A DNA stretch of 64,000 bases from Nannocystis bainbridge (GTDB lineage Bacteria > Myxococcota_A > Polyangia > Nannocystales > Nannocystaceae), in contig NZ_JAQNDL010000003.1 of NCBI RefSeq assembly GCF_028368995.1, forward strand, positions 1,216,001-1,280,000, in the 5' to 3' direction. A program made the position numbers and the translations under genes. Below the pieces are notes generated by a model that was not told the origin of the DNA, did not search any database, and saw only the letters and a list, made by a program, of their open reading frames with translations. Positions 680 to 62,491 of the stretch are shown one piece after another. Positions within the stretch are counted from its first letter, which is position 1. Every line of letters begins with the position of its first letter.

Positions 680-2890
680 TCAACCCCCGCCGCGCCGGGG
701 CAGCGTCAGGGACACGTCAAAAGCCCGCGCGGCGTCGACGCCCTCGGCGAGCCCGGCGAGGACGCGCGCGAGCTCCCGCCCGAGGCAGTCGACGGTGCCG
801 GGGGCCAGTCGATCGTCGGCGATCGCGGCGAGCCCCAAGAGCTTGCCGGCCTCGCCCGGGGTGACGCGCACGGCGATCTCCTCGGCGACGTACGGCGAGC
901 CGCAGGTCGCGAGCTCGCGCTCGAGGCGGCCGCGGAGGGCCGCGCGGGTGAGCGGGCGAACCGATGCGGCTGGTTTGCTGGCGTCGCGCGCAGACCTGGC
1001 GGGCGCGGGGCGCGAGGCCGCAGGCGCGGCCTCGGGGCTGGCCGCTGGGACAGGTTCGCCAGGCGCGAGCTCGGGAACGGTCGCGAGCACAGGTTTGACG
1101 GGCGAATCATCGAGAATGTCCGAAGGGACAGGTTCGAAAGACACGAGATCGGGGCTGGTCGCAGGGACAGGTACGCCGGCGAACGGGCTGGCCGCGGGGG
1201 CGGATGCGGTCGCGGCGCCGGGCGTCGAAGTCGCCGGGGCCAGCGCGGTGGAGACCTCGCCGACAGGCCACACCTGCCAGGCGATCCCGGCGGCGAACAG
1301 AGCGACGGCGAGCCCGCCAGCGACGCGTGAGCGCGACGGAGCGGCGGGGCTGCCCGCGGGAACAGGGGGTTCAAGCGGGCGGGGCGCTGGAGGGCCGCCC
1401 GCGAGGACAGGCGCGCCCGAGGTGGCGGAAGCGCGGTCCGCAGGGACAGGTGTGGGGGGGGCGGCTGAGCTGTCCACCGGGACAGGTGGGGGGGTGGCGG
1501 CTGATATGTCCGCGGAGACAGGTGATGGGGTGACAGATGACATGTCCGCGGGGACAGGTGATGAGGTGACGGGTGACATGTCCGCGGGGACAGGTGATGA
1601 GGTGACGGGTGACATGTCCGCGGGGACAGGTGATGAGGTGACGGGTGACATGTCCGCGGGGACAGGTGATGAGGTGACGGATGACCTGTCCATCGGGACA
1701 TGCGCGACAGTGACGGATGATACCTCCGCCGGGACAGGTTCGTGAGTGACGAATGATATGTCCGTCGGGACAGGTGCTCGGGCGACGGATGACATGTCCT
1801 TCAGGACATGTTTTCCAGTGCCGTGGATGTCCGCCGGCGCGTCGGTGACGGCGGCGCCGTCCCCGGACGCATGGACGCCGCCGGCGTACTCCGTGCGGCG
1901 CAGGCTCAAGGACAACAGCATGTCCTCGGGGCCAGGTATGGCGGTGACTGGCATGTCCGCGAGGACAGGAGCGCCCCCGGCCGTGGTCTCGCCCTCGGGC
2001 CGCGCGAGCGCGGAGGCGAGGCGGTCGAACGCCTGCGGCTCGGCGGTGACGGGGATCTCGGCGATCGCCGCGGCGAACGCGTCGACCGACCCGAAGCGCT
2101 CGTCGGGGTCCCGGGCGACCGCGGTGGCGAGCAATCGGTCGATCGCCGGATCGACCGCGCACACGCTGCCGAGCCGCGGCGCCGGGGCGAGCAGCATGCG
2201 GGAGAGGATCTCGAACGCGTTGCCGGCGTGGAGCGGGCGGCCGGCGAGCATCTCGAACATCATGGCGCCGAGGGAGTAGACGTCGGCGCGGCGGTCACCC
2301 TGACCCTCGAGCTGTTCGGGGGCCATGTAGCCGACCGTGCCGAGCATCTCGCCGGCGCCGGTCAGCTGCGAGGCGCCGCCGGCCTCGCGCGGGACCTTGG
2401 CGATGCCGAAGTCGAGCAGCTTGATGTGGAGGGCGCCGTCGGCCGCGTCGACGCAGAAGCAGTTCTCGGGCTTGAGATCGCGGTGGACGACGCCGCGGGC
2501 GTGGGTCAGCCGCAGCGCCGCGCACACCTGCAGGGCGATCGCCCGCGTCTGCGGCCAGCCGAGGCCGCCGAGGCGGCGCAGCCGCTGACGCAGGTCCTCG
2601 CCCGCGAGCAGCTCCATGACGTAATAAGCGGAGCCGGCGTACTCGCCCATGTCGATCACGCCGACCAGGTTGTCGTGGCGCATCGCCGAGAGGACGCGGG
2701 CCTCCTGCAGGAACCGCTGGACGGCGCCGGGCTTGCGGGCGAGGTCGGCGCGCAGGAACTTGATCGCCCGCGGCTGGCCGAGGCCGACGTGCTCGGCGAC
2801 GTACACGGTGCCCATGCCGCCCTGCCCTCGCCTCGCCTGGATCCGGTAGCGCCCGTCGAGGAGGACGCCCGTATAGTCTGCCTCGACCAC
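680..2890 (-). CDS. Hanks-type Ser/Thr protein kinase with repeat-rich linker, TM segment and C-terminal extracytoplasmic region
   Basis: GQGGMGTVY, AIK, HRDLKPEN, DFG and GYMAPE motifs; TM-like GLAVALFAAGIAW. Likely GTG start at 2890. Confidence 0.92.
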   Translation of the reverse strand: MVEADYTGVLLDGRYRIQARRGQGGMGTVYVAEHVGLGQPRAIKFLRADLARKPGAVQRFLQEARVLSAMRHDNLVGVIDMGEYAGSAYYVMELLAGEDLRQRLRRLGGLGWPQTRAIALQVCAALRLTHARGVVHRDLKPENCFCVDAADGALHIKLLDFGIAKVPREAGGASQLTGAGEMLGTVGYMAPEQLEGQGDRRADVYSLGAMMFEMLAGRPLHAGNAFEILSRMLLAPAPRLGSVCAVDPAIDRLLATAVARDPDERFGSVDAFAAAIAEIPVTAEPQAFDRLASALARPEGETTAGGAPVLADMPVTAIPGPEDMLLSLSLRRTEYAGGVHASGDGAAVTDAPADIHGTGKHVLKDMSSVARAPVPTDISFVTHEPVPAEVSSVTVAHVPMDRSSVTSSPVPADMSPVTSSPVPADMSPVTSSPVPADMSPVTSSPVPADMSSVTPSPVSADISAATPPPVPVDSSAAPPTPVPADRASATSGAPVLAGGPPAPRPLEPPVPAGSPAAPSRSRVAGGLAVALFAAGIAWQVWPVGEVSTALAPATSTPGAATASAPAASPFAGVPVPATSPDLVSFEPVPSDILDDSPVKPVLATVPELAPGEPVPAASPEAAPAASRPAPARSARDASKPAASVRPLTRAALRGRLERELATCGSPYVAEEIAVRVTPGEAGKLLGLAAIADDRLAPGTVDCLGRELARVLAGLAEGVDAARAFDVSLTLPRRGGG
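1435..1808. repeat. 36-bp-period tandem repeat (about 11 units) in the kinase linker, encoding PADMSPVTSSPV; each unit carries TGTCC-N4-GGACA
   Basis: Palindromic cores at 1471, 1507, 1543, 1579, 1615, 1651, 1687, (1723), 1759 and 1795, all exactly 36 bp apart. Confidence 0.95.
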
Positions 2891-2911
2891 GCCGCATGGT
2901 ACGATACGCCG

Positions 2912-3835
2912 GTGCTGGCGTGCCCACGTCTGGTCCTCGCCGCGGCGCTCGCGAGCGCGCCGGTGACCCCGACGCGATCGGCCGGGACGTGTGCCAACGA
3001 GCGAGCCGACGCCGACGCCGACGCGAACCTCGGCAATTGCCTCGGTGACGCGCGCGAGGCGAGGCAGGAGGGCGAGCCGCGGCTGGCGGCGGCGGCCTAC
3101 GCCCGGGCGCTGATGTTCGCGCGCGAGGCCTACGCGGCCGGCAAGGTGGGGGCCGCGGCGGACTGGTACGCCGCGGCGGGCGAGCAGATCGTGCACTACG
3201 GGACGGAGGGCTGCGCGCCCGCGAACCTGACGGGCGAGGCGTCACCGGCGATGCTGACGGCGTGCGTCGAGTTGCTCGACGAGTTCCTCGCGGACCTCGA
3301 GGCGGTCGACGCCGGTGCTTCGCGGTCGGCCGCGGCCGCGCGGCAGCGACGCGCGGAGCTGGAGCCGCTGCTCGCCGGGCTGCCCGCGCCGCCCGAGCCG
3401 GAGGTGCCACCGACGGCGACGCCGGCGGAGCCGCGAGGCGACTCCACGCCGGCGCTGCCGCGGGCCGTGCCGGCGCCGCGGCGACCGACCGGGCTCGACG
3501 CGGGGCTCGGCGTCGCCGCCACGGTCGCGGGGCTGGCGATCGCGGGGCTCGTGGTCGGCGACCGGCTCGGGCGCAGCGCCCACACAGCGGCGCTGTCCGG
3601 GTCCGACGCCGTCGATGCCGCCGCCGGCGTCGACCTGTGCGAGGCGATGGCCTCGGCCGATGGATGCGACGATCTGCGATCGGCGCGGCGGCTGTTCGTC
3701 GCGAGCGGCGTCACCCTGGGCGTCGCGCTGGCGGCGACGGCGTTGCTCACCGGACTGCGCGTCCGCCATGCCCGACGCGCCCGCGTCTCTGCTTCGTGGA
3801 GCGGACCGCGTGCCGGCGTCGTGGTCCGTTTCTGA
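2912..3835 (+). CDS. Exported helical (TPR-like) protein with C-terminal TM segments
   Basis: Signal-like N-terminus, helical AAAAYARALMFAREAY region, Pro linker, two hydrophobic segments and a myxobacterial-type C-terminus (GVVVRF). Divergent from the kinase. Confidence 0.6.
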   Translation: MLACPRLVLAAALASAPVTPTRSAGTCANERADADADANLGNCLGDAREARQEGEPRLAAAAYARALMFAREAYAAGKVGAAADWYAAAGEQIVHYGTEGCAPANLTGEASPAMLTACVELLDEFLADLEAVDAGASRSAAAARQRRAELEPLLAGLPAPPEPEVPPTATPAEPRGDSTPALPRAVPAPRRPTGLDAGLGVAATVAGLAIAGLVVGDRLGRSAHTAALSGSDAVDAAAGVDLCEAMASADGCDDLRSARRLFVASGVTLGVALAATALLTGLRVRHARRARVSASWSGPRAGVVVRF

Positions 3836-3911
3836 GCGCTCCGTCGCATGGGGACCGCGCGTGAAATCCCGTGAAAGTGACGCCCGGCGGCGGGCTGCTA
3901 TCGTCGACGGC

Positions 3912-61633: not shown

Positions 61634-61652
61634 CCCGCGGCGGCCCGGCGAA

Positions 61653-62303
61653 TCACTGCACCACGAGGTCCGCCGGCGAGCGCGGCGCGACCTCGTACGT
61701 GTCCTCGTACTGGAACGCCAGCCCCGTGACCGCCAGCGTCTGCCCCGGCACGATCGCCTGCAGCGCCGCCGCGTCGAAGCCGGCCGACACGTGCACGAAG
61801 ATCTGGATCTGCCCCGAGCCGTCGTCGACCCACAGCTTGTAGCCGTACGGCGAGTCGTCGACGAAGCCCTGCGTCACCGCGCCGGTGACCTTCACCAGCC
61901 GGCCCTCGACCTCCTCGTCGACGTCCGCGGTGGCGACCGCCTCCGGCGCGACTGCCATCGCCTCGCCGAGCGCCGCCACCCCGGCCGGCTCGGCCGTCAC
62001 CACCCGCATCTTCGCCATCTGCCCGAGCACCCCGGTCACCTCCACGCGGTCACCCAGCGCCAGCGTCGCGGCCTCGTCCATCTTCACGTAGATGCCCGCG
62101 CCGCCGTCGGCGATGGCGAAGCCGTGCTCGAAGGTCGCCGACGTGAAGGTCCCCGGCGCCACCGACACATGGCCCTTGACCGTCACCTCGCTGCCGTCGG
62201 CCTGTTCGCGCGCCGCGGCGATCGAGAGGTCCGGTTCGGCCGGCTCGCGGCAGGAGATCAGACAGACAGCGGCGAGCGTGGAGCGGAGCGCGAGGCGGAG
62301 CAT
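61653..62303 (-). CDS. Lipoprotein with two OB-fold domains
   Basis: LISC lipobox; SIAAAR...G..VTV.G.V, D...GIYV, EGRLVKVTG, DDGSG, YEVAPRSPADL. Confidence 0.8.
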   Translation of the reverse strand: MLRLALRSTLAAVCLISCREPAEPDLSIAAAREQADGSEVTVKGHVSVAPGTFTSATFEHGFAIADGGAGIYVKMDEAATLALGDRVEVTGVLGQMAKMRVVTAEPAGVAALGEAMAVAPEAVATADVDEEVEGRLVKVTGAVTQGFVDDSPYGYKLWVDDGSGQIQIFVHVSAGFDAAALQAIVPGQTLAVTGLAFQYEDTYEVAPRSPADLVVQ

Positions 62304-62416
62304 CAACCGATTGTACGCCGACGCCGGCGTCCGAGCGAGCTCGACAGTCAACGGCGGCCCCCCTGCGCGCTCGCGCCCACCGGGCTCCACGGGAGCGAAC
62401 GCCGGATTTCGCCACA

Positions 62417-62491
62417 TGGCCTCCAGAGCATGTTCTTCATAACATGCTCTTATCGACATGCCCTTACGGGCATGTCCGAACGTGCATGTCC
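62417..62491. repeat. 14-bp palindromic array, 5 full units plus a partial sixth
   Basis: TGGCC-tcca-GAGCA / TGTTC-ttca-TAACA / TGCTC-ttat-CGACA / TGCCC-ttac-GGGCA / TGTCC-gaac-GTGCA / TGTCC. CATG recurs every 14 bp. Confidence 0.9.

Follow-up and report, generated by a model that had tools for sequence, protein, structure and literature searches.

Palindromic units in the window and along the genome

We analysed a window of 64 kb of Nannocystis bainbridge DNA (positions 1216001-1280000 of contig C2 in an 11.05-Mb assembly of 5 contigs and 71.5% GC, called G000 below), in which a 14-bp palindromic unit, TGTCC-N4-GGACA, occurs singly or in head-to-tail arrays, in the gaps between genes and within some of the genes (Table 1). 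The palindrome is real, and every locus at which an earlier sequence-only reading had placed it does exist: the window holds 18 exact copies, compared with a mean of 0.07 and a maximum of 1 in 100 shuffles preserving the dinucleotides, and 58 matches with at most two mismatches, compared with 26 in the shuffles. The exact 14-bp register with CATG at the junctions was confirmed at nine window arrays. The region 1117-1967 had also been taken for such an array and is instead a coding repeat in the linker of a kinase gene. This repeat has a period of 36 bp, runs from about 1436 to 1799 in 10.1 copies, encodes the 12 residues SPVPADMSPVTS and reads the palindromic word in frame as V-P-A-D-M; the Pkinase domain of the same open reading frame (ORF) covers residues 120-369 (E 8.6e-41). 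Another case of units carried in a longer-period repeat is L088 (814-1172, on contig C1), where eleven units lie in a tandem repeat of about 38 bp beside a second reverse-transcriptase gene.

Genome-wide we counted 1987 exact units, whereas each of 29 other arm permutations of the same composition occurs 1-83 times. The geometry is fixed to the base: the 1987 copies with a spacer of four nucleotides stand against 8, 16, 5 and 3 for spacers of 2, 3, 5 and 6, and the junction palindrome GGACA-TGTCC is found 956 times at spacer 0 against 10-19 times at spacers 1-7. With a 20-bp position matrix about 11,000 units reach a score of at least 8, compared with 212 in the reversed genome, and since the training sites were required to carry G1, C3, G10 and C12, the most degenerate units are missed by this count. 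About half of the matrix units stand in exact 14-bp register. Pairs of matches separated by 14, 28, 42, 56, 70 and 84 bp number 2884, 1503, 971, 531, 219 and 100 respectively, while nearly all other distances up to 60 bp give fewer than 65 pairs each (93 at 36 bp); similarly, one CATG follows another at 14 bp 3736 times, against about 70-300 at nearby distances. The frequency of the motif and its phasing, as put forward by the sequence-only reading, thus lie above the controls. Arrays of one to eight units number 5540, 1171, 435, 233, 129, 27, 7 and 3, and the consensus is ACA/TGTCC-YYRR-GGACA/TGT (unit borders marked by slashes), with about one unit per kb. The strict period, spacer and junction together describe a lattice in which 7-bp half-sites (TGTCCYY) alternate in orientation; each 14-bp period has two dyads, the first at CATG and the second at the AT-rich centre.

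As had been noticed, the arrays are richer in AT than their background: their GC content is 58.6% overall and 48.9% at the centre, where intergenic DNA has 69.4% and the genome 71.5%. The centre had been described as free; it does drift between orthologues, but it prefers YYRR and A/T, and UUCG-type words are among the commonest. No sequence is conserved past about 3 nt of flank, and neighbouring units differ in their centre. Recent tandem amplification of identical units or of 42-bp triplets has produced some of the arrays, so that slippage does occur. The CRISPR arrays have repeats of 20-50 bp and unique spacers; here we find units of 14 bp with a variable centre of 4 bp, and no spacers.

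Table 1. Palindromic units in the 64-kb window, with the surrounding genes and the state of the locus in related species.
Position	Units	Location	Related species
1117..1967	10 of the 18 exact window matches	Ser/Thr protein kinase ORF 680..3196 (minus strand), Pro/Ser/Val-rich linker	
10649..10690	3-unit array	1 nt after the stop of plus-strand ORF 9577..10647	
18951..18964	single unit with degenerate in-register neighbours	long gap	
19544..19557	exact unit, in-register half-units on both sides	173 nt upstream of response-regulator gene 19731..20504	
23186..23213	2-unit array	3' part of ORF 22494..23366	three relatives compared: no match at the DNA level
25454..25495	3-unit array, 36% GC	divergent gap	in this genome only, among 4 species
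30122..30205	6-unit array	convergent gap; 4 nt after the stop of ECF sigma-factor gene 29233..30117	not at the same gene end in G010, G007 and G005; one unit there in L005 (G001)
31134..31161	2-unit array	divergent gap	retained in 4/4 species, diverged centres
32201..32242	3-unit array	overlaps the 3'-terminal codons of minus-strand ORF 32159..33373; adjoins a convergent gene end	
40860..40894	two units 21 bp apart (40860/40881)		retained in 4/4 species
48660..48673	unit containing the TGA stop of NUDIX gene 48111..48668	7-bp convergent gap	retained in 4/4 species
52568..52609	3-unit array	convergent gap 52470-52650	3 units at the same place in 4/4 species, centres differ
53846..53859	exact unit, encodes CPEGQ	within RNA-repair-type gene 52651..55992 (minus strand)	
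54488..54529	3 in-register units, residues FGDRSFGTGPEGQ	within gene 52651..55992	retained as coding sequence
59461..59488	2-unit array	110 nt past the stop of gamma-glutamyltranspeptidase gene 57599..59350	
62431..62500	5 in-register units	end 6 nt from the stop of minus-strand ORF 62507..62881	

Position, conservation and range of the arrays

Genes were called with a self-trained codon-usage caller (8028 genes, 83% coding), whose starts are often too late and which misses some genes. On these calls intergenic DNA makes up 17% of the genome and contains 61% of the exact units, the other 39% being in called coding sequence; convergent gaps have 1.5 exact units per kb, tandem gaps 0.63 and divergent gaps 0.22. 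About 1400 arrays start within -10 to +20 of the end of a stop codon, with two sharp phases: at -3 the unit opens with TGA as its first three bases (130 cases), while at +2 the TGA is part of a degenerate unit's last arm (146 cases). Altogether 2581 of the 8028 called genes have a unit within -12 to +100 of their stop, and the 3'-end bias amounts to about 7-fold in density. When gaps of at least 400 nt are considered, the 10-nt bins behind tandem gene ends contain 61-69 units each up to 40 nt and about 10-15 each past 200 nt, i.e. a density about 5-fold higher next to the stop, and the first 100 nt before start codons are depleted (4-12 units per bin). The persistence of the stop-proximal peak in such long gaps indicates more than a filling of short gaps. 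Among gaps of 80-300 bp, at least one unit is present in 72-75% of those that are convergent (mean 2.2-2.7 units), 24-37% of the tandem and 3-14% of the divergent. Called coding sequences harbour 52% of the single units and about 10% of the arrays of at least 4 units. The sequence-only reading had insisted that sites lie between convergent, divergent and tandem genes as well as inside coding sequences. Each of these situations does occur, but the sites are overwhelmingly close to stop codons, and the deduction that they could not be gene-end elements is wrong in proportion, given the convergent and divergent fractions above.

We compared the window with syntenic 100-kb stretches of three other Nannocystis species, with a coding identity of about 77-92%. 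Four of the six window arrays compared (31134, 40860, 48660 and 52568) are held at the same places in all four species, with TG..CA kept and the centres changed. Setting 31 window gene ends against up to three relatives, which are not independent of one another, gives units in both for 10 comparisons, in the window only for 9, in the relative only for 6 and in neither for 35 (odds ratio 6.5). A wider comparison of 139 orthologous gene ends, between G000 and 500 kb of one relative, G010, finds units on both sides at 26 ends, in G000 alone at 19, in G010 alone at 5 and on neither side at 89 (odds ratio 24, p 1.6e-11). A fast turnover of the arrays, as a single gene end had suggested, is overturned by these wider orthologue comparisons. 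Within the units, 97 copies of G000 were compared with the aligned base of G010: the identity is 0.81 at G1, 0.80 at C12 and 0.71-0.73 at C3/C4, whereas the centre reaches 0.45-0.52 and the other downstream positions 0.63. This contrast is to be taken as indicative and not as an estimate of rates, since global alignment may be biased towards the motif and takes in gaps that cannot be aligned.

Among named organisms, the closest relatives of a window gene are in Nannocystis records, with 81-83% protein identity. The palindrome family is common to three genera, Nannocystis and two sister genera (g4 and g2), which make up the 20 motif-bearing genomes among the 61 compared, the other 41 lacking the motif. 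The exact 14-mer occurs 114-2090 times in the Nannocystis genomes (11/11; 1-6 in the reversed controls), 67-696 times in g4 (6/6; controls 1-4), so that the copy number varies ten-fold within this one genus, and 87-169 times in g2 (3/3; controls 2-10). Numbers are marginal in the 7 genomes of genus g26 (5-20; controls 2-7) and fall to 0-11 in the remaining genomes, from other genera of the family. The pattern of junction plus unit is also found in g4 (41+41 in G072, 9+8 in G061) and in g2 (2+1 in G069), with 0 in the controls.

Along the genome the density of units ranges from 5 to 109 per 50 kb (mean 49.7), with a standard deviation of 21.9 where a Poisson distribution would have 7.0, and in these 50-kb bins it correlates with GC (r = 0.59). 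No unit at all occurs in 25 stretches of at least 15 kb, and in regions of 50-200 kb only 0-4% of the normal-size genes have a 3' unit, compared with 32% overall and up to 57% elsewhere. Among the 57 genes called in five unit-free stretches are an IS21 transposase pair, a VgrG, efflux pumps, genes for polysaccharides and non-ribosomal peptides and an immunity protein; the matches of one 20-kb stretch are dispersed over non-syntenic places of the relatives, and this stretch is partly duplicated in G000. The arrays therefore sit in long-resident DNA while accessory DNA goes without them, and in practice they tell long-resident DNA from recently acquired islands. Where the GC skew changes sign the density has no special pattern; it varies instead with the accessory islands, and the role in occlusion or segregation, proposed from the sequence alone, finds no support.

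A candidate protein lattice and its rivals

Do the units act as RNA or as DNA? Hairpins in 3' untranslated regions, serving as terminators or mRNA stabilisers, would account for units lying directly past stop codons, for their palindromic form and for the frequent UUCG-type centres; precedents would be TRIT, the sequence-conserved terminator hairpin of Mycobacterium, or transcribed repetitive extragenic palindromes (REP). Moreover, of 3093 protein-gene ends followed by a gap of at least 160 nt, only 139 have a strict terminator, and slightly fewer of these fall at ends with units than expected (45 observed vs 58 expected; odds ratio 0.66, p 0.027), the order of unit and terminator being mixed (24 after, 14 before, 7 mixed). 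The pairing itself, however, has left little trace. The two arms vary independently, with one perfect and one mutated arm as an abundant form, and most units have arm mismatches that would break a 5-bp stem. Compensatory double changes number 596 vs about 510 expected (about 301 from independence and 209 from the spacer controls), and non-compensatory ones 3318 vs about 3770, that is, at most a weak excess of compensation. Once units are oriented by the upstream gene, the form TGTCT..GGACA, which would keep a U.G pair on the sense strand, is no commoner (148) than TGTCC..AGACA with its C.A mismatch (156), and the words of the centre, the would-be loop, have no consistent orientation relative to the transcribed strand. 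At flank position 1 complementary pairs are in modest excess (1066 vs 899) because the units fall into two classes, with A..T flanks (81% intergenic) and with C..G flanks (55% in coding sequence); no excess is found at flank positions 2-5, so that there is no helix extension, and no T-run follows the units in the flank profile. Ordinary terminators made of a GC-rich hairpin and a T-run do exist in this genome, since one is found within 90 nt at 18 of the 102 tRNA genes; a unit lies within 150 nt downstream of only 9 of them. These tests speak for a recognition of double-stranded DNA over a base-paired structure, and we consider the hairpin explanation very improbable. TRIT resembles the present units as a conserved word at the gene ends of one lineage, and differs from them by the failure of the RNA-pairing and strand-bias tests and by their phased arrays.

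We lean, with caution, towards reading the units as a cooperative binding lattice for a predicted symmetric, sequence-specific protein of double-stranded DNA. This reading rests on the fixed geometry, the independence of the half-sites, the strand symmetry, the AT-rich centre, the degenerate units kept in register and the base-specific conservation of key positions. An AT-rich centre is common for a non-contacted or bent spacer between two major-groove contacts. The protein, two-fold symmetric, would bind single units weakly and polymerise cooperatively along stacked ones, in the manner of MetJ, omega and ParG-type repressors on short palindromes. Arrays follow stop codons directly, occupy convergent gaps, are seldom found before starts and show a slight anticorrelation with hairpin terminators; on these grounds the bound lattice may act at gene ends in both directions, either as a barrier or insulator against read-through transcription or as a site handling supercoils at 3' ends. 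A dimeric protein binding cooperatively had been part of the sequence-only reading, and it is what fits best; the functions attached to it then are unsupported. One might go further and see in this lineage-specific lattice a general gene-end roadblock of Nannocystis and its two sister genera, stopping or insulating transcription from both sides at a third of the genes and three quarters of the convergent pairs and taking the part that RNA hairpin terminators play in other organisms, an idea to which we give only a small chance. If a protein lattice does operate at gene ends, it would be a new bacterial way to delimit transcription units or to manage the supercoiling of convergent genes, and it would provide a handle on gene ends in genomes of 11-13 Mb and 71% GC where hairpin terminators are rare. 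The annotation and engineering of these natural-product producers must in any case reckon with the arrays.

Stacked operators of this kind are known for ribbon-helix-helix proteins, as the met-boxes of MetJ (8 bp), the heptads of omega (7 bp) and the boxes of ParG. In myxobacteria, the ParB iterons of plasmid pMF1 are given as 8-bp AGATGTCT units in passages of PMC3235114, in which the words TGTCC and GGACA occur in the table of primer and iteron sequences. All these arrays share with ours short symmetric units that abut in a fixed register, with degenerate copies next to good ones, a sign that binding spreads cooperatively through the array; the 14-bp unit divides into two 7-bp half-sites. 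They are, however, confined to few promoters or to plasmid centromeres, while here about 11,000 units are mostly behind genes. A cooperative repressor comes with a cognate protein and a promoter or centromere location; here the 100 nt before starts are avoided. As to chromosome organisation, parS, the NBS of Noc, the SBS of SlmA and the matS of MatP are placed relative to ori or ter. They are dyad sites of similar length (14 bp for NBS) read by dimeric proteins; unlike our units, they number tens to hundreds, are not stacked, and the density of the present family has no special pattern at GC-skew switches. CdbA, a nucleoid protein of Myxococcus, has according to passages of PMC7156744 a GC-rich direct-repeat motif separated by 4 bp and is found in all Myxococcales. 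It illustrates that an abundant, sequence-preferring ribbon-helix-helix nucleoid protein exists in myxobacteria; the palindrome family being limited to three genera, and the motif being of another type, CdbA is rejected as the reader. In searches of the literature on repeats and palindromes of Nannocystis and myxobacteria, part of it represented by titles and the openings of abstracts, no description of this family was found.

The same arrays may be looked at as selfish DNA, close to the propagating element that the sequence-only reading had offered as its second alternative: a REP-like repeat whose units are copied or expanded by a DNA-level mechanism (transposition in trans, slippage, conversion) and survive behind genes, where they do least harm. 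REP and the mosaic elements built from them (BIME), which are bound by the host proteins gyrase and IHF, are also high-copy, lineage-specific short palindromes, clustered behind genes and in convergent gaps and depleted at promoters. Thousands of copies in one lineage, the bias to gene 3' ends and convergent gaps, the absence from accessory non-syntenic islands, the copy-number range in g4, the recent tandem amplifications and the species-specific arrays would all agree with this. Nevertheless the unit here measures only 14 bp and is stacked head to tail in exact register without linkers, its arms are conserved as sequence and not as a pair, and about half of the single units are in coding sequence. 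Unlike in REP/REPIN-RAYT systems, no Y1/RAYT transposase (PF01797) was found in G000, in 10 other Nannocystis, 6 g4 or 3 g2 genomes (0/20). The control genomes are positive, and a Y1 transposase exists in 15 of the 41 motif-lacking relatives, being common in several sister genera (7 of 8 genomes in g24). Insertion sequences and a group II intron carry incidental units inside and none at their ends. Nor does copying agree easily with the absence of conserved flanks past about 3 nt, with the differing centres of neighbours, or with orthologous arrays that persist with base-specific conservation, and space-filling does not predict the preference for the first 40-70 nt past the stop in long gaps. 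We regard the selfish repeat as unlikely; it would mean that a repeat reaches a high copy number with no REP transposase of the known kind. A word for DNA uptake or self-recognition, like the uptake sequences DUS and USS, accumulated by biased uptake and recombination in long-resident DNA, would explain a lineage-specific site present about once per kb in coding and intergenic DNA and depleted in accessory islands; DUS and USS are likewise known as inverted pairs downstream of genes, and in this they resemble our units as conserved words at the gene ends of one lineage. But these known words are asymmetric 9-12-mers with a variable spacing in their pairs, whereas the present unit is symmetric and has a spacing fixed to the base; arrays of up to 8 units in phase are predicted by no uptake model, and the strength of the 3'-end bias also stands against it. 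We hold such an origin for highly improbable.

The protein lattice has for its part to face several observations that weigh against it. No candidate reader was found, either among the neighbours of the window arrays or among 66 small proteins beside promoter-side arrays, which have no common family, and the genes adjoining the window arrays are unrelated (ECF sigma factor, NUDIX hydrolase, HbpS-like protein, DUF4215 protein, gamma-glutamyltranspeptidase, response regulator). Single units would have to be weak or unbound, as around half of them are in coding sequence where a roadblock would be harmful; the division between intergenic and coding units is itself approximate since the gene calls are crude. 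The genes of the 50-200-kb accessory regions do without arrays. Of the 45 unit-bearing gene ends of G000, 19 have no unit in G010, and among the four species only this genome has the arrays at 30122 and 25454; such species-specific arrays imply that not every array is under constraint. Lastly, a drive through copying or conversion, or an aligner favouring the motif, could also explain why the arm bases are better conserved.

Mobile elements, coding units and other features

Mobile elements ending in units were looked for in G000. Four repeat families carry units, only internally and incidentally. One of them is a group II intron with a reverse transcriptase, 2.06 kb long and present in three near-identical copies (L084, L085 and L086; contig C1 positions 3393915-3395978 and two others; RF02003, RF00029). 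A 1.42-kb element has three copies as well (C2:2315114-2316538, C1:555903-557318 and C3:876248-877671), two of which have a unit 37-54 bp beyond the same end; this might hint at an insertion near units. In another genome (G051) a 5.6-kb element seemed bounded by units, and proved to belong to a 9-kb stretch present twice at 98.9% identity, whose sites are internal. A link with retrons was likewise dismissed, two further reverse-transcriptase loci having ordinary gene-end units and no Rfam retron RNA.

An autoregulated reader was sought at the 95 arrays of at least 2 units found in divergent gaps; the 66 small flanking proteins share no similarity. A CATG methylase is no marker of the lineage either, a D12 methyltransferase being present in 57 of 61 genomes of the order irrespective of the motif.

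Every 14 nt a CATG junction provides an ATG on each strand, successive junctions running through the three frames in turn, and in the 25454-25495 array the ATG at 25467 starts an ORF of 206 residues (25467..26087). The gene at 52651-55992 (minus strand) encodes a protein of 1113 residues with MJ1316, endonuclease/exonuclease/phosphatase, 2'-5' RNA ligase and poly(A)-polymerase-like domains, an unusual fusion of the RNA-repair type, whose in-frame units read CPEGQ and GPEGQ. At 40580-40859, 278 bp separate the stop of ORF 39476..40579 from the pair of units, compared with about 15 nt in the other three species; this is either an insertion in the present genome or a deletion in the three others.

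Coding tandem repeats of 93-150 bp occur at 7245-7833 and 50300-51850 in cysteine-rich DUF4215 proteins, and DUF4215 paralogues are the source of most of the weak cross-matches between genomes. Elsewhere in G000, about 30 tRNA genes are packed in 2.6 kb (C2:2556665-2559233), as in prophages or mobile islands. At several contig ends (C1:4515659-4536530, C2:3021502-3033751 and 1-3617, C5:707284-720618), stretches of 7-17 kb match their own reverse complement and each other at more than 99%, and are either foldback artefacts of the assembly or a real large inverted repeat that the contig ends have in common.

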